Assembly (NCBI GenBank): GCA_051745565.1
Contig: JBNJEF010000001.1
Coordinates: forward strand, 1 to 52,319
Length of the DNA: 52,319 bases
Direction of reading: 5' to 3'
Source of the DNA: Patescibacteria group bacterium
GTDB lineage: Bacteria; Patescibacteriota; Minisyncoccia; Phycocordibacterales; CSBR16-193
Positions 3,477 to 52,319 of this stretch are shown one piece after another. Both the position numbers and the translations under genes were made by a program. Each line of letters opens with the position of its first letter. Positions within the stretch are counted from its first letter, which is position 1. A model generated the notes under the pieces. It made no database searches. It was not told the origin of the DNA and worked only from the letters and a program-made list of their open reading frames with translations.

Positions 3477-5135
3477 TTAAGCGTTTAATTTTTCTTGTAA
3501 GCTCTTTGTAAGACCTTCAACGGTAAAGGGACGTGAGTCGTATTTTAATATACTGTCATGAACTTCTATTTGGTACTGTTTCATAACCTGTTCAAGTTGG
3601 CCGGTTGCGTTTAATTCTACACATATAATTCTCTCTACTCCTTCCAGCTCCTCTTTCATTCTTTTCTCAGGGAAGGGTTGCATTACTACGGGCTGGATAA
3701 GTTTTAATCCCATATCTCTACTTGCTCTTAAAACCGCTCCCTTGCTTGAGCCCCAAAAGATCAAGGCGGTTGATCCTTCTCCATAGACTTTCACAGTTTC
3801 CAGTATTTCCAGCTCTTCTCTTAGTTTGCCTCTCTTGCGTAGTCTTTTTTCCACCATTCTTTTCACTTCTTCGGGGTTCTCTGTGGCTATTCCGTCTTCC
3901 GTATGCTCGTAACTGGTGGCTTTGACAACGGCTTTACCTCCCGGGAATTTGATAGGGGAAATATCATCACCGCTGTATCTTTTGTATTCGGTGTTATCAG
4001 GATCAAGGTCTTCAACGATATCTTCTTTGTCTATATGGTATGCACCCTCAAGGCCGTAGGTGTTCTCGGATAGCTCTTTATCAAGAAGAATTATTGAGGG
4101 CATCTGATGCCTCCATGCTATATTCAGTGCTTTTCCGCCCCAGTAATAGGCTTCATCCGCATCTCCGGGTGCGACGACAAATCTTTCTATATCTCCATGT
4201 CCGGCATTAAGAGCAAACAGCAGATCCCCTTGAGCTTCGTAAGTGGGAACACCGCTTGCCGGACCCATTCTTTGACTTAGAGCTATTAAGATCGGAGTTT
4301 CTGACTGGGCAGAAAGGCTCAGGGCCTCGGTCATTAGAGCAAATCCTCCGCCGGAGGTGGATAGAAGTGTTCGTCTGCCTGAATAAGATGCGCCCAAAGA
4401 CATATTTATCACGGATATTTCGTTTTCCGGCTGACAGGTTCTTATCCCTTCTACTGATGTTAGAAAGCTGAAAACTCCGGTTGCAGGTGTCATGGGATAT
4501 GATATACAACATTCCAGTCCGGCTTTTATGGCTCCGAGGGCCACCGCTTTATTTCCGGAGACTAGCGGAAGAGGATCATTTCCTGTTTCGGCAACTTCTC
4601 CTTTTTTGTGAACTTTATTAAAAGCCGCTTCGGCTACCCTTAGATTGGCTTCGGTTTCTTTGTTGAGGTTTTTTAGAAGAACCTCTTTTGTTTTGTGCCA
4701 TTCTATACCCATTAGCTTGGAAAGGGCGGCGATCAGAGCGGTGTTTTTCATTAAGGATGTCCCTTTGGCTTCTTCTATTATTTTATCTGTTGGGACGGAA
4801 AGTGTTTCTATGTCCTCTTCTTGAGACATATCCATTTTGGTTGACTTTTGGTCGTATACCAAAACCCCGCCTTTTTTTATCCTGTCTTTATGCTTTAAAA
4901 TAGTGTCTTCGTTGAGAGCTAGAAGGAAGTCTATTTCTTCTTTCTTGGCTTCCACCTTCCGGTCTGAAGATATGGATATTTGAGAAAAATTGTGCCCTCC
5001 TTTTATGAGAGAGTGGTAGTCTTCGTGTATGAAAACCTTGAATCCGTAGGAATTGAAGATCTTGCCGATTATTAAACCGGCTTTCTTGGAGCCTTCTCCC
5101 GCGGCACCTCCGACAACTATTTGAAAGTTATCCAT
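3477..5135 (-). CDS. 2-oxoacid:ferredoxin oxidoreductase, fused gamma-alpha subunit
   Basis: The N-terminus MDNFQIVVGGAAGEG is gamma-like, followed by an alpha domain (GNKAVALGAIKAG...ISYPMTPATG). The longer track ORF (to 5270) would overlap the ferredoxin gene, so ATG 5135 is chosen. Confidence 0.9.
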   Translation of the reverse strand: MDNFQIVVGGAAGEGSKKAGLIIGKIFNSYGFKVFIHEDYHSLIKGGHNFSQISISSDRKVEAKKEEIDFLLALNEDTILKHKDRIKKGGVLVYDQKSTKMDMSQEEDIETLSVPTDKIIEEAKGTSLMKNTALIAALSKLMGIEWHKTKEVLLKNLNKETEANLRVAEAAFNKVHKKGEVAETGNDPLPLVSGNKAVALGAIKAGLECCISYPMTPATGVFSFLTSVEGIRTCQPENEISVINMSLGASYSGRRTLLSTSGGGFALMTEALSLSAQSETPILIALSQRMGPASGVPTYEAQGDLLFALNAGHGDIERFVVAPGDADEAYYWGGKALNIAWRHQMPSIILLDKELSENTYGLEGAYHIDKEDIVEDLDPDNTEYKRYSGDDISPIKFPGGKAVVKATSYEHTEDGIATENPEEVKRMVEKRLRKRGKLREELEILETVKVYGEGSTALIFWGSSKGAVLRASRDMGLKLIQPVVMQPFPEKRMKEELEGVERIICVELNATGQLEQVMKQYQIEVHDSILKYDSRPFTVEGLTKSLQEKLNA

Positions 5136-8716: not shown

Positions 8717-9717
8717 ACTGTATTTATTGGTGTTCCTTTAATGAAGTTGATAATGTTTTCTACGGTTGTTTCTTGTATGCGTCGGAAGGCCTCTTTGGTG
8801 TTAAAAGCGTTGTGCGGAGTAACCAAAACTTTTGGGTGCTTTATGAGGAACTGATTACATAGTTGCGCTTTTAAAAGATCAATGTCAAGTTCCACATTAT
8901 CCGAAAGACAGACCTCTCCTTTTTTAAGAAGTCTTTCTTTTTCCATAACATCCAACGCCACTCCTTTCAGTATATCTTCTTCAAGACCTTTTATAAGAGC
9001 TTCTGTTTGAACCAGTTCTCCTCTGGAAGTGTTTATGAGCATACTTCCGGTTTTGAATGTTTTGATGTTCTCTTTATTTATCAAGTGGCGGGTGTGTTGG
9101 TTTAGGGGGGCGTGCAAGGTTATGATATCACTTTCTTGTAATACGGAATTGAATTCCTTATATTCAAAACCGATCTCCTCGGCCAGGTGTTCTTTGGGGA
9201 ATGGATCAGTGGCCAGTACCTCCATTCCGAAACCTTTCGCGATACGTGCCACGTTGGATCCTATTTTTCCCGTGCCTATTATTCCCAATCTTTTACCATG
9301 AAGGTCTATCCCTCTTAAGCCTTCTCTTGAAAAGACCCCCGTCTCTTTAGTTCTCTTGCAAGAAGAGCATATCTTACGAGAGATCGCCAGTATTAAGCCG
9401 AAAGTGTGCTCTGCCACGGTGTGCTCTCCGTAAGCGGGGACATTGGTCACAACAACTCCTCTTTCTCTGCACGCTTCAATATCTATATTGTCAAAACCCG
9501 TTGATCTGACAGCGATCATTTTAAGGGAAGGGAATTTGGATATTTCTTCAGAGTCTATTTTTTGCTTGAAGAAAAGAGAGAGTATCTCTGTTTGCTCTGC
9601 TTCTTCGCTAGATATATCATCAATAGTCTCAAAGAAATTGACCTCTGCCGAGTCCTGAAGATGAGATAGAACAAAGTCTCTTTCTTTATTGCTTCTCTGT
9701 ATGTAGGATACCTTCAC
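8713..9717 (-). CDS. D-isomer-specific 2-hydroxyacid dehydrogenase (D-lactate/glycerate dehydrogenase-like)
   Basis: GIIGTGKIGSNVA Rossmann motif, INTSRG, and the PHNAF catalytic His region. The track start at 9777 is TTG and overlaps ppsA by 50 nt. GTG at 9717 gives the family-typical N-terminus VKVSYIQ. Confidence 0.85.
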   Translation of the reverse strand: MKVSYIQRSNKERDFVLSHLQDSAEVNFFETIDDISSEEAEQTEILSLFFKQKIDSEEISKFPSLKMIAVRSTGFDNIDIEACRERGVVVTNVPAYGEHTVAEHTFGLILAISRKICSSCKRTKETGVFSREGLRGIDLHGKRLGIIGTGKIGSNVARIAKGFGMEVLATDPFPKEHLAEEIGFEYKEFNSVLQESDIITLHAPLNQHTRHLINKENIKTFKTGSMLINTSRGELVQTEALIKGLEEDILKGVALDVMEKERLLKKGEVCLSDNVELDIDLLKAQLCNQFLIKHPKVLVTPHNAFNTKEAFRRIQETTVENIINFIKGTPINTV

Positions 9718-9727
9718 GGATAAAGCG

Positions 9728-12151
9728 TTAAAAATCGCCTTCTTCTGAGAGTTTCTGTTCCTCGTCGCGTATTTCAAATTTCATGGGGATAATAGAGTCG
9801 GGGATAAGGGAGACGGAGTCAATTCTCTCTTGAATAAGGAAGCGCAAGAAGTCTTTATAATCGGAGGGCGCTTGTCCGCAGAATCCAATGTATTTTCCTC
9901 TTTCTTTACATTTCTTAATGGCTTCGGAAACAAAACGTTTAACCGAAGGATCGTTTTCGTTTGAAATACCGGCTACTATGGAAGAGTCTCTGTCCAAACC
10001 GAGAGTTAGTTGAGCCAGGTCGTTAGACCCGATGGAGAATCCGTCAAAGAGATCAAGGAAATCATCGGCACGGAGGACGTTTGTCGGCAGTTCGCACATT
10101 ACGTAAACCAAAAGTCCGTCTTCACCTTTTGCTAATCCGCACTCGGCCATTATTTCCAATACGCGTTGACCTTCTTCGGGTGTTCGGCAGAAGGGAACCA
10201 TTACGGCCAAATTTTTTAGACCGAATTCTTCTCTTATCTTTTTCATGGCTTCACATTCAAGCTTGAAGGCTTCGGTAAATTCCGGATGAGCGTACCTTGA
10301 AGCACCTCTCCATCCGATCATGGGATTTTCTTCTTCGGGCTCGTATTCTTGACCGCCGATAAGGGTCGCGTATTCGTTTGTTTTAAAGTCTGAGAACCTT
10401 ACAATGACTCTTTTGGGGTGAAAAGCGGCCGCTATTTGGCCCACACCTTCAGCCAATTTATCAACGTAGAACTGTCTTTTGTCTTCGTATCCGGCGGTTA
10501 CTTCGTCAATTTTCTTTTTTAAGGATGCTGACTGTGAGGAGTAATTTAATAGAGCAAGAGGATGCACTTTTATATGGGAAGCAATAACGAACTCTTCTCG
10601 GGCTAGGCCGACGCCATCGTTCGGGATAGATGAGTAAACCAAGGCGCTTTCCGGACTTCCGATGTTCATGGAAACATGAGTTTGCGTTTGAGGTATTTCG
10701 TCTATTTTGTGAACGGATTCTTCCCAGTCAAGTTTACCTTTATATATCTTTCCCACGGTTCCGCTGGAAGTGTCGCAGGTGATGGTCTGTCCATTCTTTA
10801 TGACCTTGCGAGCATTGGGTACTCCGATAACGGCGGGGATACCGAGTTCTCTTGAAACAATAGCTGCGTGGGATGTTCTTCCTCCTTTTTCCGTTACGAT
10901 AGCGGAAGCTATTTTCATTATCGGTTCCCAGTCAGGGTCGGTTATCTCCGTAACCAAAACCTCTCCTTCTTTGAAGTCGTGGATATTCTCAACCGAATCT
11001 ATTACTCTTGCTTTGCCCGAAGCTATTTTTGTACCTACTGCTATTCCTTCGGCTATATGTTCTTCGTCTGATTCAAGATGATACTCTCTTATTTCCATAC
11101 TCTTATCTTCGGCGTGGATGGTCTCCGGTCGGGCTTGTACTATGAAAAGATCTCCGCTTTCTCCGTCTTTGGCCCATTCAATATCCATAGGTGAGTGGTG
11201 TCCCGCTTTTTCCGAATAATGTCTTTCTATTTCCGACCCCCAATGTGCCAGCGTCAGAATATCTTCGTCATTTAGAGCGTAAGCTTTTCTTTCTTTTTGA
11301 GTAGTTTCCACCTCTTTGGTGGGGGAGTCTCCTTTGGAGCTGTATACCATTTTTATTCCCTTTGCTCCTAAGGTTCTTTTAATTATGGGTCGGAAACCTT
11401 CGTTTAAAGTGGTTTTGAAAACGAGATATTCATCAGGATTCACTTTTCCCTGTACAACCATCTCTCCCAGGCCCCAGGCCGCGCTTATTTGCACCACGTC
11501 TCTGAATCCGGATTCGGTGTCCAAGGTGAACATCACTCCGGAGGCACCTTTATCTGATCGAACCATCTTTTGTACGCCTACTGATAGGGCAACGTCAAAG
11601 TGGTCAAAGCCCTTATCCTGTCTATATGAAATAGCTCTGTCGTTGAAAAGGGAAGACATGGCATGTTTTACGTATTTCAGCACGCTATCTATGCCGACAA
11701 CATTAAGGTATGTATCATGCTCGCCGGCAAAACTTGCTCCCGGCAGATCCTCTGCGGTAGCTGATGATCTCACTGCTACATCGGCGGCGTTTTGGTTATA
11801 AGCGTTTGAGAGGTTTCTGTAAGCGGTCTCAATTTCTTCGGTGAGTTCCGGAGAAAGGTCGGCCTTGATTATTGCTTCTCTAACTTTTTTTCCGGCTTTT
11901 TGTAATGCTTTAATATCACTGGTATCCAAGTTCTCCAAGGTGGAGCGTATCAAGGGCTCCAGCCCCGCTTCATTAATAAAGCGTCGGTATCCTTCCGCTG
12001 TCACCACGAAACCATTAGGTACTCTTATACCTCTCTCGGCAAGGGTGGTGTACATCTCTCCCAGTGATGCATTCTTACCGCCGACCTTTTCAACATCATT
12101 GTTGTTCAATTGGTCAAACCATAGTACTAAGGATTGATTTTTTTCTAGCAT
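9728..12151 (-). CDS. ppsA: phosphoenolpyruvate synthase (pyruvate, water dikinase)
   Basis: 807 aa with a GGKNASLGEM ATP-grasp N-terminus, GGRTSHAAIVSRELGIPAV phosphohistidine swivel domain, and a C-terminal PEP-utilising TIM barrel (SIGSNDLAQ). Confidence 0.95.
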   Translation of the reverse strand: MLEKNQSLVLWFDQLNNNDVEKVGGKNASLGEMYTTLAERGIRVPNGFVVTAEGYRRFINEAGLEPLIRSTLENLDTSDIKALQKAGKKVREAIIKADLSPELTEEIETAYRNLSNAYNQNAADVAVRSSATAEDLPGASFAGEHDTYLNVVGIDSVLKYVKHAMSSLFNDRAISYRQDKGFDHFDVALSVGVQKMVRSDKGASGVMFTLDTESGFRDVVQISAAWGLGEMVVQGKVNPDEYLVFKTTLNEGFRPIIKRTLGAKGIKMVYSSKGDSPTKEVETTQKERKAYALNDEDILTLAHWGSEIERHYSEKAGHHSPMDIEWAKDGESGDLFIVQARPETIHAEDKSMEIREYHLESDEEHIAEGIAVGTKIASGKARVIDSVENIHDFKEGEVLVTEITDPDWEPIMKIASAIVTEKGGRTSHAAIVSRELGIPAVIGVPNARKVIKNGQTITCDTSSGTVGKIYKGKLDWEESVHKIDEIPQTQTHVSMNIGSPESALVYSSIPNDGVGLAREEFVIASHIKVHPLALLNYSSQSASLKKKIDEVTAGYEDKRQFYVDKLAEGVGQIAAAFHPKRVIVRFSDFKTNEYATLIGGQEYEPEEENPMIGWRGASRYAHPEFTEAFKLECEAMKKIREEFGLKNLAVMVPFCRTPEEGQRVLEIMAECGLAKGEDGLLVYVMCELPTNVLRADDFLDLFDGFSIGSNDLAQLTLGLDRDSSIVAGISNENDPSVKRFVSEAIKKCKERGKYIGFCGQAPSDYKDFLRFLIQERIDSVSLIPDSIIPMKFEIRDEEQKLSEEGDF

Positions 12152-13433: not shown

Positions 13434-13481
13434 TATTTAATTTTATTCCGTTTACAGGATGTGTTCAATGGATAACCAAAG

Positions 13482-13509
13482 CCCTACACTTTACGAGTAA
13501 AGTGTAGGG
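13482..13509. other. perfect 12-bp hairpin in the glycerate kinase leader region
   Basis: ccctacacttta-cgag-taaagtgtaggg. It shares the core ACTTTAC-nAG-TAAAGT with a helix inside rnpB (35737-35764). Confidence 0.6.
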
Positions 13510-13690
13510 AAATCCCAAATTCCAAATAACAAATTCCAAATAAATTCAAAATTAGAAATCCCCCCGTCCCCAATTTTGCGAGATTGATTTAATTAAGGCG
13601 TAAAGGCAAAGCAAAGAATTGAATATTAAGCGTTCAACACTTCGCCCAACAAGGGATACTCTATTCGCGCCCGCGTTGAACGAAACAGCT

Positions 13691-13776
13691 TTAGCGCAAA
13701 GCGCTATTCCACAGGGTTTACCATGTGGAATAATTTCACCTGTGGTGAAATTAGCGCAAAGCGCTATTCCACAGGG
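13691..13776. repeat. two perfect 26-bp direct repeats with palindromic cores, 60-bp period
   Basis: ttagcgcaaagcgctattccacaggg occurs at 13691-13716 and 13751-13776. The 34-nt spacer forms stems with the repeats (attccaca/tgtggaat and aatttcacc/ggtgaaatt). Confidence 0.9.
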
Positions 13777-13874: not shown

Positions 13875-13959
13875 GCCGTGGTGGCGGAATTGGTAGACGC
13901 GCTGCGTTCAGGTCGCAGTTCCCTTCAAGGGAGTGGGAGTTCAACTCTCCCCCACGGCA
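13875..13959 (+). tRNA. tRNA-Leu (anticodon CAG), long variable arm
   Basis: Acceptor gccgtgg/ccacggc, anticodon arm ctgcg-ttCAGgt-cgcag, variable arm ttcccttcaagggagt, T arm gggag-ttcaact-ctccc. Confidence 0.93.
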
Positions 13960-21668: not shown

Positions 21669-21699
21669 ACACCGCTCTTTCAAAGAGCGGTGTTTCTTG
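21669..21699 (+). terminator. intrinsic terminator
   Basis: acaccgctcttt / aaagagcggtgt is a near-perfect palindrome followed by ttcttgt. It lies downstream of the H1-like gene. Confidence 0.65.
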
Positions 21700-35302: not shown

Positions 35303-35317
35303 ATATTTTTTGCAAAA

Positions 35318-35350
35318 TAAAACCTCTCGCTTAAAGCGAGAGGTTTTATT
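35318..35350. terminator. bidirectional terminator shared by gatB (+) and rnpB (-)
   Basis: cctctcgct-taa-agcgagagg is a perfect 9-bp stem flanked by A-runs and T-runs. Confidence 0.75.
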
Positions 35351-35351
35351 T

Positions 35352-35926
35352 ATGTGTCCGTACCTATAAGCCGAATTCTGTGCCCCGCTCTTTTAAGTTT
35401 CATTGTCTTGATCATCTCACTTGCTACTCTTTGTTTGAGTGATCCGATCAAATAACAAAACCTAAAAGAGCGGGGCGGTAGTCATTTATCTGGGATGAAT
35501 GTCGCCATTCACCTCAAGCGGCACTCCCCGCTCTTTTAAACCTCGTTTAAATCAATCCGGACTTCTCTTTGTTGATCTCCAAGAGAAGAATTATCTATCG
35601 GTCTAACGAAATCTAAAAGAGCGGGGCACGGCCTTGCACCCGGTAAGGATTTAGCCGTTTCACCTCTCCGTTGCCGGGGAGTTATTCCCGGAGGGAATCC
35701 TTTGCCTTTCGGCTCCGGCGTCACTGCTCGCACCTCTCCCCATACTTTACTAGTAAAGTATGGGGGACGGGTGTTACCCGCTACCTTTTTAGACGCTCCG
35801 GTGGAGCGAATGGGTGTTCGGACTTTCCTCCCCGCTCTTTTAAATCCCGTTCATTTATTATTCTTCCAATAGCTGTTCAATTGTAACGGGGCCTAAAAGA
35901 GCGGGGCGACTACCCGGTACGGACCT
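35352..35926 (-). ncRNA. rnpB: RNase P RNA, bacterial type A architecture, unusually long (about 575 nt)
   Basis: On the minus strand: P1 GTCCGTACC...GGTACGGAC; P2 GGTAGTC...GACTACC; P4 GAGGAAAGTCCGAAC...CACAGAATTCGGCTTAT; GGTAACACCCG; GAGGTGAAACGG...CCGGGTGCAAGGCC; and P18 GAATG-GCGA-CATTC. All occur in the canonical order. Confidence 0.9.
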
Positions 35927-36028
35927 TTTATATTATACAATACATTTATCAAATGTCCAACAACTATCTTGTTCATAATACTCGTTTTATAGACGAAACT
36001 TCTTCAATTTCTTGGGGATTTTGTTATA

Positions 36029-45932: not shown

Positions 45933-47429
45933 ATGAGAGAAAAGTTTGCGAGCAAAGAGGTCGGATATGTGACTCAGGTAAATAACTATCTTTTGACCAT
46001 AAAGGGTCTGCCAAGTGTAAGGGTCAATGATATTATCACCGACAGAAAGAGCAGAAGAGCGGTCATTCATTCCCTGCATGCTGATTCCGTCAGAGCTTTA
46101 TCTTTAAGTAAGGAGCCCGTTGACCCGGGGGCGGAGTTTTTTCTTGATAGAGAAAGCGGGAGGATGAATATGGGTGATCATCTAAAGGGCGGTGTAGTTA
46201 ATGCTTTAGGTAAATCGGTTATCTCTTCCGAAGGCAGGGATCGTGCAAATAGTGGAGCTTCCCGTGATCTGGAATTTGATGTGAAAGCTAAAAACATTGA
46301 CTCCAGAGATTTCATAAAAGACCAACTTGTTACCGGTTTCGCTCTTATAGATACGATAGTTCCGGTAGGTAAGGGTCAGCGGGAACTTGTTTATGGTCCC
46401 ATACATAGCGGTAAAAAAGAGTTTTTGCAAAGTATTGTAATAAACCAAAAGAAACAGAAGAACATATGCATTTACGCCGCTATAGGTAAACCGGCTATTT
46501 TCACCTCTCGTTTAATAAAAGTACTTAAAGACAATGATGCTCTTGATAACACCGTTATTGTTTCGGCTCTTTCTGATGATCCTGCTCCCATGATAACCGT
46601 AGCACCTTCCACTGCTTTCCTTATAGCGGAGCACTTCTGTTCCAAGGGTGAAGATGTTGTTTTGATATTGGATGATCTGGGAATACATGCCAAGTATATA
46701 AGAGAGTCCGCTCTCTTGTCTGGCCAGTTCCCCGGAAGGGAATCTTATCCGGGTGATATTTTCTACCAGCATGCTCATCTTATGGAAAGGAGTGGGAGTT
46801 TTAATGAAAAACAAGGCAATGGCACTATAACTCTCTTTCCCGTTTTGGAAACGGATGTTGAGAGTTTTTCTAATATAATACCCACTAATCTTATGGCTTC
46901 AACAGATGGGCATCTTTTCTTTTCGGCGGAGATGCATGCTGAAGGCTTTAAGCCGGCGGTTTCCATATTACAATCCGTTACTCGTGTAGGACATATGACG
47001 CATAACAATTTACAAAGAGGCCTTTCCACTAAGCTTATGAATGTTCTCTCGGAGTATCCTCGTCAACAGGAGTATAGCAGGTTCGGTACACAGATGAGCG
47101 AACACACCCGTGACATCCTTAAAAAGGGCAGAGTGATATATGAGCTCTTAAATCAAAACCACGGAGAGTTAATGACTGTTGGGACCCAATTAATACTCCT
47201 TTCACTTGTATTCACTTCTTTTTTTGATAGCGAAAAAAGAGATGTTGATTTTGTAAGGTTTGAAAGAGAGAACTTGATAAAGGCCGCAAATGAAAGTGAT
47301 ATTTTCAAAAAAGCCAGAGAGCAGGCAGACTTGGGGGAGATCGGTGTTGATGATTTTATTTACGTAATAGAAGAAGGTGTCAAAGATCTCAGCGCACTTT
47401 TTGATTCCAAAGATAAAAATGAGAACTGA
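45933..47429 (+). CDS. atpA: F-type ATP synthase subunit alpha, divergent P-loop
   Basis: The alpha/beta fold is recognisable (GKGQRELVYGPIHSGKK, ILDDLGIHA, FPGRESYPGDIFYQHAHLMERSG, ITLFPVLET). The Walker A reads GPIHSGKK rather than the canonical GDRQTGKT. Confidence 0.85.
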   Translation: MREKFASKEVGYVTQVNNYLLTIKGLPSVRVNDIITDRKSRRAVIHSLHADSVRALSLSKEPVDPGAEFFLDRESGRMNMGDHLKGGVVNALGKSVISSEGRDRANSGASRDLEFDVKAKNIDSRDFIKDQLVTGFALIDTIVPVGKGQRELVYGPIHSGKKEFLQSIVINQKKQKNICIYAAIGKPAIFTSRLIKVLKDNDALDNTVIVSALSDDPAPMITVAPSTAFLIAEHFCSKGEDVVLILDDLGIHAKYIRESALLSGQFPGRESYPGDIFYQHAHLMERSGSFNEKQGNGTITLFPVLETDVESFSNIIPTNLMASTDGHLFFSAEMHAEGFKPAVSILQSVTRVGHMTHNNLQRGLSTKLMNVLSEYPRQQEYSRFGTQMSEHTRDILKKGRVIYELLNQNHGELMTVGTQLILLSLVFTSFFDSEKRDVDFVRFERENLIKAANESDIFKKAREQADLGEIGVDDFIYVIEEGVKDLSALFDSKDKNEN

Positions 47430-47459
47430 TCCTTTGTTCCCTGAACAATTTTTGTCCTT

Positions 47460-49699
<2,240 letters not shown>

Positions 49700-49718
49700 T
49701 AGATCATACATTTGAAAT

Positions 49719-49740
49719 CGGCAAATTTGTCGTTTTTTTA
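49719..49740 (+). terminator. short hairpin plus T7 tract after atpD
   Basis: cggcaaatttgtcg is a near-palindrome followed by ttttttt. The stem is weak. Confidence 0.4.
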
Positions 49741-49773
49741 TTTGCCACAAATATAAAATCGTTTCCAAATTAG

Positions 49774-49814
49774 TGGCTCATCTCGGCCGTATCTCGGTTA
49801 TATCTGTTTATTTT
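49774..49814. repeat. left arm of 41-bp inverted repeat pair
   Basis: tggctcatctcggccgtatctcggttatatctgtttatttt matches the reverse complement of 50538-50578 at 35 of 41 positions. It contains iterated ATCTCGG units. Confidence 0.85.
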
Positions 49815-50133
49815 TAATTATAAATTAAAAGTTATGATCATCCTGAATAGTGTAACTTCAATAACCTGTAGTTGAATTGAACAATGTTGTGCTTTATGAG
49901 GTCACGGCCTCTCTCTGACTCTTAAACATTCCATCGGGAGTAGCGTCCCATCTTTTCTCTTTGGTTTTGTAATGTGTTTAATAATTATGAAGCTTCTCGT
50001 AAGTTCAGGCTTATTTTGAGTATCCCCCGGTTTAATGGAGTCTGCAAAAATAAGCAGAAATGATATGACTAATATTAGTATGGAACTTATAGCATCATAA
50101 CGATGCCAGTCTATTAGTTTTAAGTAGGATTTT

Positions 50134-50415
50134 TTATACGTTTGCGTATATTTTTATCTCGTTCTCTTTTGCGTACAGGAGAGAGCGAGGAAAAGTGAAT
50201 TTCTTCTCCTCTTTACTTTCAGTTTTAACCACTATAGGGGTGTCTTTAAGTATGGTTATAAAATTGGCGTGTTGAGGTAGTACATCAAATGGTCCACTGG
50301 TATTTTCGGCAGAAATGGATTGTGCGTAACCTTCCCATACCACTTCACCCAAAGAGATGATGCGCACGCTTAAAAGGGTTTGATCCTTTTCTTTAGACTC
50401 TTCGTTTTTATTCAT
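50134..50415 (-). CDS. atpC: F-type ATP synthase subunit epsilon, beta-sandwich domain only, encoded antisense to the rest of the operon
   Basis: LSVRIISLGEVVWEGYAQSISAENTSGPFDVLPQHANFITILKDTPIVV aligns with the epsilon N-terminal domain (G.fgiLpgHapl.t.L). There is no C-terminal helical hairpin. The track start at 50424 is TTG; ATG 50415 is used. Confidence 0.75.
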   Translation of the reverse strand: MNKNEESKEKDQTLLSVRIISLGEVVWEGYAQSISAENTSGPFDVLPQHANFITILKDTPIVVKTESKEEKKFTFPRSLLYAKENEIKIYANV

Positions 50416-50500
50416 ATATAGCAATTATATCATCTCAAACTATCTTTTTTTGGGTGTTACACACACTATCCACAGTAGCGGTTTCTCCTCTATCTCTGTC

Positions 50501-50509
50501 TGTTATAAT
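50501..50509 (+). promoter_or_regulatory. extended -10 promoter element facing the downstream large gene
   Basis: TGtTATAAT lies about 30 bp inside the right inverted-repeat arm and 100 nt upstream of ATG 50609. The -35 region is weak. AT-rich background lowers its specificity. Confidence 0.35.
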
Positions 50510-50537
50510 TAGATAACGAGACCAAAGAGAGGTACGT

Positions 50538-50578
50538 AAAATAATCCGAGATAACCGAGATACCGCCTAGATGAGACA
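50538..50578. repeat. right arm of 41-bp inverted repeat pair
   Basis: aaaataatccgagataaccgagataccgcctagatgagaca contains iterated CCGAGAT units. It is the partner of 49774-49814. Confidence 0.85.
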
Positions 50579-50608
50579 TTTTTTATATCTCGCTTATATA
50601 TCATCCTA

Positions 50609-52319
50609 ATGGAGGAGGCAAACGAAAGAAAATATATTCCAACACGGGAAGCTTCCAGGCTTACCGGATACACAACCGATTACATAGGTCAGCTTTGTCG
50701 TTCAGGTTTGGTGCTTTGTCGTAAGGATGTAAAGGGTTGGTTAGTGGATAGAGATGATCTTCTAAGATACAAAGAAGGCATATCCGCCGGTATACCCCAA
50801 AGTGAGAATACGCCTTTTAATATCAAAGTTCCTTATACAACAAATCAAACGGATAGCTTTGCTAAAACAGAAAAAAAAGGATCTGATCAGATCTCTTCTG
50901 ATCCTGTTTCTATTTCGTCTGACAATATAACTCAATCCGAAACTGCACCTTATTTGGGAATGGTAAGCAAAAAAGGATCCGGGGTTAATTTAATGGAAAA
51001 AGAAGAGAAGGAAAACGAGGTTTCTGAGGTCCACGATCAAGAAGGAGAAGTCAGTGAAAATGATCGTGTTAAAGATAAGTTCTTTTCCAAATTGGCCGTC
51101 ACAGTTATTTTATTTCTACTGTTCTTTTTGTCATCTTTCGGTATCTTGCAAGCCATCGGCTCTACGGAGGCAGGTGGCAGAGTGATATCAAATGCCACCG
51201 AGACTGCCGGGTTAATCGCTTCGTCCATTCTTGGCGATACCGAAGTTAAGAAGTATCTTCCCAATTTTATGTTGGCCCAGACAGGATCGGATTCTGAAAC
51301 CGAAGATACTTCGCAGGAAGTTGAAGCAGATCTGGAATCAATACCTATGGATCAGTTTGAAGGGGCAAGAGAGGTCCCTGCCGGGGATGCTTTTCCCAGA
51401 ATAGCCGAGGGTCTAGGTCTTTTGGAGATAAACGTTGACACACTCTTAAGCGAGGATCTGGAGGTGGCGGGAGATTCCACTTTCCAAGCGGTTGATATTC
51501 TGGGTCCTTTTAGTGTTGAGGGTCTTTTTACAGCCGGCGGAGGTTTGAATGTTATCGGTCCGGCCGATCTAGAAACTCTATCAGTTTCCGGTGAGAGTGA
51601 ATTTGTCGGTTTAACTACCATAAATGATCTCAATGTTGAAGGAATCGCCGAATTTTCAAACTCCGCTTCGTTCGCTGATATAACTGTTACTGAACCCAGT
51701 GAATTTATGGCTACTACCAGATTTTCAGAATTGGAAGTTACCGGCACCAGCACCTTTACTGGAACCAGCACTTTCCAAGCTCCTTCTATGTTCACGGAAC
51801 TAACCGTTTCAACTTCTACTGAGCTTATGGGAACAACAACGGTACTTGGTTCCAGTCGTTTCTTTGAAAGTTTAAGGGCTACCGGAGGAGTTTTAACAGG
51901 CGGCGCTGATATAGATCTTCAAGGAGGAAGACTACTTGGAACTGATCTTGTTCAGAATGTGGAAGCGGGATCGCAGATAAGGATAAATGAAGTTGAAGAA
52001 GGAGTTTTTCGTATAAGTTCTACTGCCGGAAGTGGTGCTCCTACTGCCGGTGAAGACATTGCGGTTGATGGCAGAGAAGTCTCTAATATTTCCACCATAG
52101 GATCAGTTGCGGAAAGAACATCAGGAATTTCTTGGGATGACGGTCGTGAGCGTATGACCATAGGAGGAACTTCAACACTGGATCACGGTTTGGACATAGA
52201 AGGAACTCTCTCCGTGACAGGCACCACCACCTTAGCCGGAGTGGAATACAGCTGGCCGGGAGATGCCGGTCTTGAAGATCAAGTTTTGGTTACTGACGGC
52301 AATGGTGATCTTTCGTGGA
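50609..52319 (+). CDS. large membrane-anchored protein: N-terminal HTH (MerR/excisionase-like), one TM, and an extracytoplasmic repetitive beta-helix/fibre-like region (partial, continues beyond window)
   Basis: Manual translation gives 570 codons with no stop to the window end. The ORF is absent from the track because it lacks a stop. HTH: YIPTREASRLTGYTTDYIGQLCRSG. TM: LAVTVILFLLFFLSSFGIL (about 51080-51160). After that come degenerate repeats of roughly 14-15 aa rich in G/T/S/V (LEVAGDSTFQAV, LSVSGESEFVGL, LEVTGTSTFTGTSTF) and YSWPGDAGLEDQVLVTDGNGDLSW. Confidence 0.8.
   Translation, partial: MEEANERKYIPTREASRLTGYTTDYIGQLCRSGLVLCRKDVKGWLVDRDDLLRYKEGISAGIPQSENTPFNIKVPYTTNQTDSFAKTEKKGSDQISSDPVSISSDNITQSETAPYLGMVSKKGSGVNLMEKEEKENEVSEVHDQEGEVSENDRVKDKFFSKLAVTVILFLLFFLSSFGILQAIGSTEAGGRVISNATETAGLIASSILGDTEVKKYLPNFMLAQTGSDSETEDTSQEVEADLESIPMDQFEGAREVPAGDAFPRIAEGLGLLEINVDTLLSEDLEVAGDSTFQAVDILGPFSVEGLFTAGGGLNVIGPADLETLSVSGESEFVGLTTINDLNVEGIAEFSNSASFADITVTEPSEFMATTRFSELEVTGTSTFTGTSTFQAPSMFTELTVSTSTELMGTTTVLGSSRFFESLRATGGVLTGGADIDLQGGRLLGTDLVQNVEAGSQIRINEVEEGVFRISSTAGSGAPTAGEDIAVDGREVSNISTIGSVAERTSGISWDDGRERMTIGGTSTLDHGLDIEGTLSVTGTTTLAGVEYSWPGDAGLEDQVLVTDGNGDLSW

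Follow-up and report, generated by a model that had tools for sequence, protein, structure and literature searches.

Why should a bacterium with a tiny genome carry a ribonuclease P (RNase P) RNA gene that has nearly doubled in size, and why should three peripheral helices of that RNA rest on the same stem? The question is raised by rnpB on the minus strand of contig JBNJEF010000001.1 (Patescibacteria group bacterium, assembly GCA_051745565.1), of which positions 1 to 52,319 were analyzed as a single 52,319-nt stretch, referred to here as the window. We propose, with a probability of roughly 60%, that the three hairpins are copies of a helix cassette resembling the intervening sequences (IVSs) of ribosomal RNA (rRNA), specific to stable-RNA genes, spread by copying at the level of DNA and constrained at the level of RNA.

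Three hairpins of one RNase P RNA share a 22-bp stem

The original prediction, drawn from the letters of the window, had described an oversized type A RNase P RNA. Its core assignment was borne out by a covariance-model alignment of the minus strand to Rfam family RF00010, which spans model positions 1–367 (92.8 bits, E 7.7e-29) and has the type A elements in order (P1–P4 core, GGUGAAA, P15 loop, P18 and ACAGAAnnCGGCUUA). The RNA starts with GGUCCGUACCGGGUAGUCG and ends with ...ACAGAAUUCGGCUUAUAGGUACGGACACAUA. The size was also right: 271 of the 575 nt (47%) belong to three hairpin cassettes, in a host of Paceibacteria/"Campbellbacteria" type from the candidate phyla radiation (CPR). The remaining 304 nt are 85%–90% identical to the cores of relatives, and since they retain the conserved type A core aligned full length by RF00010, the ribozyme is expected to be active. 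The gene and its cassettes are listed below, with scores under R1, a covariance model built from 23 cassette copies.

35351..35925, minus strand: rnpB, bacterial type A RNase P RNA, 575 nt (304-nt core plus 271 nt of hairpin cassettes)
35830..35906, minus strand: cassette copy E1, 77 nt, replacing the whole P3 hairpin (exact arms; RF00010 alignment; R1 71.3 bits)
35526..35626, minus strand: cassette copy E2, 101 nt, replacing the P16/17 hairpin beside the P15 loop (exact arms; RF00010 alignment; R1 72.2 bits)
35383..35475, minus strand: cassette copy E3, 93 nt, replacing the J2/4 hairpin at the optional P19 position (exact arms; RF00010 alignment; R1 70.0 bits)

The alignment agreed with the predicted insertion positions at P3, P16/17 and J2/4 (between the P2 3' strand and ACAGAA). 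The three hairpins and their lengths stood as predicted, with each coordinate having been given 1 nt too low. The 13-nt arms, CCCCGCTCTTTTA and TAAAAGAGCGGGG, have exactly six exact occurrences in the window, every one of them within rnpB, as expected of three hairpins with identical arms. With up to two mismatches allowed, 11 matches were found against 1.76 expected, a count reached in none of 100 shuffles. The five inexact matches are unrelated to the cassette; those at 21670–21692 form an ordinary terminator palindrome and were set aside.

The interiors had been thought unrelated, with only the 13-bp base identical. This did not hold: conservation covers a related stem of 22 bp. Base pairs 1–13 (CCCCGCUCUUUUA/UAAAAGAGCGGGG) are essentially invariant in an alignment of the copies, pair 14 is G.U in 20 of 23 copies, pairs 15–18 covary (AU/GC/GU; UA/CG), and pairs 19–22 are a conserved CGUU/AACG. 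The sequence inward of the arms is accordingly related among copies, as G(G/A)YYYCGUUA...AACGRRRUU. Past pair 22 there is an A-rich internal loop, followed by a fast-evolving distal hairpin that varies in length and sequence. All three copies fold far more stably than shuffled sequences (E1, -33.8 kcal/mol, z -5.9; E2, -44.9 kcal/mol, z -7.3; E3, -45.2 kcal/mol, z -9.4). We considered a known ribozyme or intron within the hairpins and rejected it, as no Rfam family scored above noise.

Identical arms could in principle serve alternative long-range pairings, any 5' arm with any 3' arm, so that the RNA acts as a conformational switch, an option that the original prediction had raised. The formal complementarity of the arms is the one point in its favor. 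When the whole 575-nt RNA was folded, the minimum free energy and centroid structures both formed the three local hairpins, along with P1, P2, P8, P9 and P18, and local pairing dominated. Local stems reach at least 22 bp and include copy-specific covarying pairs that would be lost on cross-pairing, which would also disrupt the conserved core. Moreover, the rnpB genes of relatives carry anything from zero to four copies, and a 16S rRNA gene has a single one (see below). We give the switch virtually no weight.

The cassette recurs in related rnpB genes and in one 16S rRNA gene

To map its distribution, we scanned one genome per species (185,579 species) for perfect arms 45–75 nt apart. The scan returned five loci, numbered like those that follow with an L, from four Campbellbacteria/Paceibacterota metagenome-assembled genomes (MAGs), which are incomplete; four of the loci are rnpB and the fifth is a 16S rRNA gene. 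The gene order MYG1-Obg-GatB-rnpB is kept in relatives, and because of this synteny more relatives could be fetched through GatB homologs and their rnpB genes then read. In all, we found 23 copies with standard arms plus two long copies with variant arms, in the Paceibacteria/"Campbellbacteria" clade. Apart from the 16S copy, all standard-arm copies (22/23) lie in rnpB. The sites are rnpB P3, P9, P16/17 and the J2/4 (P19) hairpin, and 16S helix h6. Their occurrence in rnpB is as follows.

Window, L005, L003 and L017: cassettes at P3, P16/17 and J2/4
L001: cassettes at P3, P16/17, J2/4 and P9
L002 (= L011, L012): cassettes at P3, P9 and J2/4; short native P16
L013: cassette at J2/4 only
L010 (contig ends inside rnpB): cassette at J2/4; native P16
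L016: stem-plus-tetraloop short forms at P3 and J2/4; long hairpins at P9 and P16 with variant arms CCCGCUCCACUUCU/AGAAGUGGGGCGGG
L022: collapsed remnant at J2/4
L015 and L018: no cassette; rnpB of 366 and 369 nt; RF00010 scores of 117 and 113.8 bits

J2/4 is the most widespread site in the clade. In L016, the second arm variant, CCCGCTCCACTTCT...AGAAGTGGGGCGGG, is common to both long hairpins (P16 at 9033–9104 and P9 at 9218–9314) and matches the standard arms just in their outer 8 bp. L010 and L022 are short-read (Logan) contigs that stop inside rnpB, at 11775 and 2818, respectively.

The same four positions in element-free rnpB genes hold short, unrelated native hairpins with identical junctions; L015 and L018, for example, have a native hairpin of ∼10 bp at J2/4 and a short native hairpin at P16/17. 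Where a cassette is present, the native helix is absent and not split. The cassette thus replaces whole helices and is not an insertion into a loop. No target-site duplications were found at the cassettes, and the flanks differ by site (GUCG/AGGAAAG, CGUG/AGUGCC, ACCG/CACAGAA and AACG/AGUGGC to the left and right of the element).

The 16S copy (L004, 803–902) replaces helix h6 in the V1 region and lies on a contig from the same MAG as rnpB locus L001. Two further 16S loci were reached through the SecF gene upstream of it (SecF 73% and 69% identical), and neither of these 16S genes has the cassette: h6 is native in L021, and h6 of L020 carries a different insertion. The latter, at 4060–4333 on a more distant Patescibacteria contig, bears an open reading frame (ORF).

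A search with R1 over 233,682 nt, comprising the window and the clade loci, gave matches of at least 42 bits only at the known rnpB and 16S copies; the cassette is therefore not a generic genome-wide palindrome of the repetitive extragenic palindromic (REP) type, which the original prediction had named as an ordinary explanation. The other ordinary outcome it had named was that relatives would have the same helices on unrelated stems; relatives instead keep the same base sequence. A relaxed arm pattern, CGCTCTTTTAG..TTAAAAGAGCG, had no related match in metagenome contigs and none in viral contigs. The metagenome scan did return four unrelated matches (L006–L009). One of them, on an unrelated sediment metagenome contig (L006, 1217–1316), is a 100-nt hairpin with arms GGGACGCTCTTTTAGAATTT.../...AAATTTTAAAAGAGCGTCCC that shares the inner CGCTCTTTTAG motif. 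It is without the CCCC/GGGG ends and outside any recognized RNA gene, and the likeness is probably coincidental.

Inheritance, copying and loss

The window's closest relative is L005 (GatB 91% identical). Cassette interiors at the same site are 70%–72% identical between the two (E1 72%, E2 70%), a likeness that, on these identities, is vertical inheritance. Copying between helices is superimposed on this. The P3 and J2/4 copies of L001 are 96% identical along their entire length, which indicates a recent copying event as judged from sequence; since the two are still distinct, the pair is not an assembly artifact. The interiors of L002 P3 and J2/4 (75% identical) and of L003 P16 and J2/4 (71%), together with the variant arms shared within L016, also point to copying between helices.

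These patterns bear on two origins suggested by the original prediction. Module duplication of the P3 base was correct insofar as whole hairpins are copied between helices, but P3 is not demonstrably the source, because the J2/4 copy is the most widespread and the native P3 stems of element-free relatives are unrelated to the cassette. Capture of a hairpin repeat element was likewise right in part, in that the hairpin does form a repeat family.

Collapsed remnants of the cassette are present in L016 and L022. In a neighbor-joining GatB tree (without support values), the cassette-bearing L003 branches first in the clade, and the element-free L015 and L018 are nested. The nested pair and the remnants suggest cassette loss or repeated gain among relatives.

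We set aside one apparent case of within-species polymorphism. L014 (11805–11878) and L015 come from different runs and have identical GatB (P0007) and an identical 3' two-thirds of rnpB; the 5' third differs: L014 carries a P3 cassette like that of the window and mispairs A with C in P1, and L015 has a short native P3. Because the 5' part of L014 resembles the window lineage and produces the P1 mismatch, this locus may be an assembly chimera or a natural recombinant. Assembly artifact as the origin of the cassette itself was also rejected: copies have different interiors, assembly k-mers are longer than the arms, and independent assemblies share the architecture.

Constraint on the transcript

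The alignment of cassette copies carries a signature of selection on base pairing. Across the 23 copies, whose phylogenetic non-independence means that both the pairing and the sense/antisense statistics overstate significance, 96% of stem cells are paired and eight pairs are changed on both sides, with neither value reached in 500 shuffles; in slid registers, pairing drops to 35%–61%. Host-sense folds are more stable than antisense folds in 22 of 25 copies (mean -4.6 kcal/mol; 77 vs. 38 G.U pairs), and R1 scores higher in sense for every copy, with L017 P3 nearly equal. The covariation analysis advised by the original prediction thus yielded compensatory pair changes across copies from relatives. 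In the P3 copy of L002, for instance, a U-A pair has become A-U by compensation, and a C-to-U substitution preserves pairing as U.G. Between the window and L005, the ribozyme core is 90.4% identical, the 22-bp stems are 89%–95% identical, and the distal parts are 58%–70% identical; stem and core identities being alike and the distal parts lower, the stem is as constrained as the ribozyme core. These observations favor constraint acting on the transcript.

They also bear on the reading of the cassette as a DNA transposon, similar to miniature inverted-repeat transposable elements (MITEs), REP sequences or the Rickettsia palindromic element (RPE), whose 13- to 22-bp stems would be terminal inverted repeats and whose bias to stable RNAs would reflect tolerance and the fragmentary nature of MAGs. 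The arms do look like terminal inverted repeats with bipartite conservation (13 bp invariant, 22 bp conserved), presence varies among relatives, one genome has a near-identical copy pair, and two copies are possibly inverted. There are precedents, too: one Rickettsia palindromic element is inserted in a tmRNA gene (PMC1458961), and STRR repeats are described within rnpB helix P12 of heterocystous cyanobacteria in the work of Vioque (1997; PMC146911), as cited in PMC2858038. As with the cassette, an essential structured RNA here tolerates repeated DNA within one of its peripheral helices. Both precedents, however, are genome-wide families with hundreds of copies, mostly intergenic or coding, whereas every cassette found is in a stable-RNA gene and takes the exact place of a helix, with RNA-level constraint on its stem. 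A transposon would be expected to land most easily in intergenic DNA, yet no copy was found outside rnpB and 16S in the four related MAGs of the exact scan or in the 234 kb searched with R1. Whole helices are exchanged at exact junctions, with no target-site duplications and no residual native helix, and no transposase is nearby. Unlike a dead MITE, the cassette maintains its stems at orthologous sites while interiors decay, and the compensatory and G.U-biased changes point to RNA-level selection. We consider a transposon origin of this kind improbable.

RNA-level constraint would also be expected if the hairpins were retained expansion segments that share a protein-binding module, with a clade-specific protein reading the 13-bp stem plus the adjoining G.U pair in the small ribosomal subunit as well as in RNase P RNA. 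The original prediction had likewise listed a repeated protein-binding site among its explanations. Archaeal L7Ae offers a parallel, as it binds kink-turns (K-turns) in rRNA, RNase P RNA and small RNAs, so that one structural module recurs in the ribosome and the RNase P RNA of the same organism. In keeping with such a role, the stem sequence is as conserved as the catalytic core in paralogous and orthologous copies alike, the G.U at position 14 is conserved in 20 of 23 copies, the same cassette is found in two different ribonucleoprotein RNAs, and the two long hairpins of L016 share variant arms, as if their sites fit one co-evolving partner. A perfect A-form duplex, however, gives a protein few features by which to recognize its sequence. 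Watson-Crick and G.U pairs run without interruption through the conserved part, which has no kink, bulge or K-turn; in particular, it does not have the three-nucleotide bulge with tandem sheared G.A pairs. Close relatives have no copy or different subsets, so the module is dispensable, and the 96% identical interiors of L001 speak for duplication, not convergence. In contrast to the K-turn and L7Ae, the cassette is without a known binding protein, and no candidate was found in the window, which holds only housekeeping genes. Overall, we think this explanation unlikely.

A model for cassette spread and processing

In the reading we favor, the peripheral hairpins P3, P16/17 and J2/4 have been replaced, from the first base pair on, by one lineage-specific cassette that probably acts like an rRNA intervening sequence or expansion hairpin. 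Cassettes are seen only where helix tips of stable RNAs are exposed to solvent (at four sites in rnpB and at h6 in 16S), and are probably tolerated because P3, P9, P16/17, J2/4 and 16S h6 would all project from the particle. Copying would most likely proceed at the DNA level, by gene conversion or by template switching, with the conserved arms as seeds. The stem probably serves for recognition or processing, and of the possible roles that of a double-stranded RNA substrate of two helical turns for ribonuclease III (RNase III) is the most plausible. Its geometry is substrate-like, a 22-bp near-perfect duplex closed by an internal loop, and RNase III excision of the cassettes is plausible as a model. 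The putative cleavage would shorten the hairpins, and the stem bases together with P1/P2/P4 would keep the resulting RNase P RNA in one piece; or else the rods may simply stay in place and be tolerated. No transposase, reverse transcriptase or RNase III was found among the window genes examined, which are housekeeping genes or have no Pfam match.

A more far-reaching version of this model is possible but doubtful. It would make the cassettes true intervening sequences of RNase P RNA, cut from pre-16S and pre-RNase P RNA by a double-strand-specific endonuclease (RNase III or a clade-specific enzyme reading the 13-bp stem). The ribozyme would then consist of three to five fragments held together non-covalently, and the cassette would be a mobile "helix-swapping" element that targets stable RNAs generally. 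If true, natural fragmentation would be seen here for the first time in a bacterial RNase P RNA.

Several points weigh against our proposal. The 16S instance comes from one MAG contig only. Normally, RNase III cleaves without requiring 13 invariant base pairs, and the conservation is not explained by this enzyme alone; with the outer 13 bp more invariant than RNase III requires, a sequence-reading factor or continual homogenization may therefore be involved. Nor does ordinary gene conversion readily account for copying that keeps to the exact limits of a helix when the flanks share no homology. The J2/4 copy of L010 and the P3 copy of L017 fold better in antisense and look inverted, from which it follows that DNA-level events occur too; both fit an inversion at the DNA level or insertion in either orientation. 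The non-independence of copies noted above also tempers the statistics. Finally, the window has one related short hairpin between genes, and the wider family may therefore not be confined to stable RNAs.

Short-form hairpins

The window has two short-form hairpins, one in rnpB itself and the other in intergenic DNA.

35738..35766, minus strand: P9 short-form hairpin, CCCCCAUACUUUACUAGUAAAGUAUGGGG (alignment with relatives; L001 and L002 have a full cassette at P9)
13481..13510, strand not assigned: intergenic short-form hairpin, CCCUACACUUUAC..GUAAAGUGUAGGG (related to the P9 hairpin, not to the long cassette)

The intergenic hairpin is described by 28 nt, CCCTACACTTTAC(GA)GTAAAGTGTAGGG, and lies upstream of a minus-strand DUF4147/MOFRL gene and of a tRNA-Leu gene at 13875. 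Its stem matches P9 of L005 (4125–4154) and not the window's own P9; the short-hairpin family also includes that L005 hairpin and one in the V2 region of the L004 16S rRNA gene (985–1014). Rfam gave no family match at 13481–13510, and whether this hairpin belongs to the cassette system is uncertain. A 26-nt direct repeat, TTAGCGCAAAGCGCTATTCCACAGGG, is found in intergenic DNA upstream of the same tRNA-Leu gene (13690–13715 and 13751–13776), with the palindrome AGCGCAAAGCGCT in both copies.

Genomic context and detection of rnpB

The gene lies between gatB and pheS, with Obg, GatB, PheS and PheT encoded around it, at a location syntenic with rnpB in relatives. Its flanks have features of an independent transcription unit.

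35932..35959, minus strand: predicted sigma-70-like rnpB promoter, TGGACA-16 nt-TATAAT (11/12 consensus positions)
35314..35347, minus strand: intrinsic terminator hairpin, CCUCUCGC-UUUAA-GCGAGAGG plus U-run, immediately 3' of rnpB (read directly from the sequence)

The first G of the RNA is 7 nt downstream of the predicted TATAAT, and the TTGTATAATAT motif upstream of rnpB is kept in relatives. The terminator hairpin is bidirectional, common to rnpB and the convergent gatB, and has equivalents downstream of relatives' rnpB genes; a pattern scan of the region did not list it.

A default Rfam scan of the window returned two tRNAs and nothing else. It missed rnpB because the score of 92.8 bits is below the RF00010 gathering score of 100 bits, a shortfall due solely to the three large insertions; an E-value threshold was used instead. 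Other clade members also score below 100 bits (the values, including the window's, are 92.8, 91.4 and 98.2, and about 49.5 in L003 and L017).

Elsewhere in the window, an ATP-synthase epsilon-like ORF (50134–50424) is on the strand opposite atpA, atpG and atpD (45933–49699, plus strand). Within the region 49700–51351, a stretch of about 930 nt (50425–51351) has no ORF of at least 90 amino acids and no Rfam or tRNA/tmRNA match.

Relation to known elements and implications

Intervening sequences of bacterial rRNA are found in 23S helices 25 and 45 of Salmonella, Coxiella and Leptospira, and also in 16S rRNA (PMC11270868, PMC4990558), with their biology established for 23S rRNA, as in Coxiella (PMC4990558). 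The rRNA genes of CPR bacteria have many short non-intron insertions thought to be RNase III intervening sequences (PMC11270868). The cassette resembles these elements in that a hairpin sequence with a long double-stranded stem stands in for the end of a peripheral helix in the gene of a stable RNA, is sporadic among close relatives, shows signs of transfer between sites, and has one copy in 16S rRNA (h6). It departs from them in its main host, here RNase P RNA, a ∼370-nt ribozyme that may contain as many as four copies, and in forming a single family with an invariant 13-bp base common to rnpB and 16S. Excision by RNase III is the defining biochemical property of an IVS, and the cassette is likened to one from sequence and fold.

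In CPR bacteria, RNase P RNAs have been described whose helices are extended or missing and whose scores do not reach Rfam cut-offs (Lui et al. 2021; PMC8172020). The rnpB genes studied here are similar in being type A, with large helix extensions and sub-threshold Rfam scores, and in being missed by default annotation. That work, in contrast, describes no repeated cassette with an identical stem at several helices, nor one shared with rRNA. More broadly, the literature searched held no description of one invariant-stem cassette that recurs among the helices of an RNase P RNA, or of one that RNase P RNA and 16S rRNA have in common. What is new is an IVS-like hairpin element in a new host RNA, in multiple copies and shared between RNAs.

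There is a practical side to this. Cassettes push rnpB below the Rfam gathering score, which helps explain "missing" RNase P RNA in CPR genomes, and their repeated arms may break short-read assemblies; contig breaks near rnpB and sub-threshold scores may both contribute to the apparent absence of the gene from such MAGs. If its novelty holds, the cassette would mean that IVS-like elements target stable RNAs generally and not ribosomes specifically. Relatives with zero, one, three or four copies would provide a natural experiment on how much peripheral "cargo" a ribozyme tolerates, one that also bears on the in vivo function of fragmented RNase P RNA and on the copying of helices between RNA genes.

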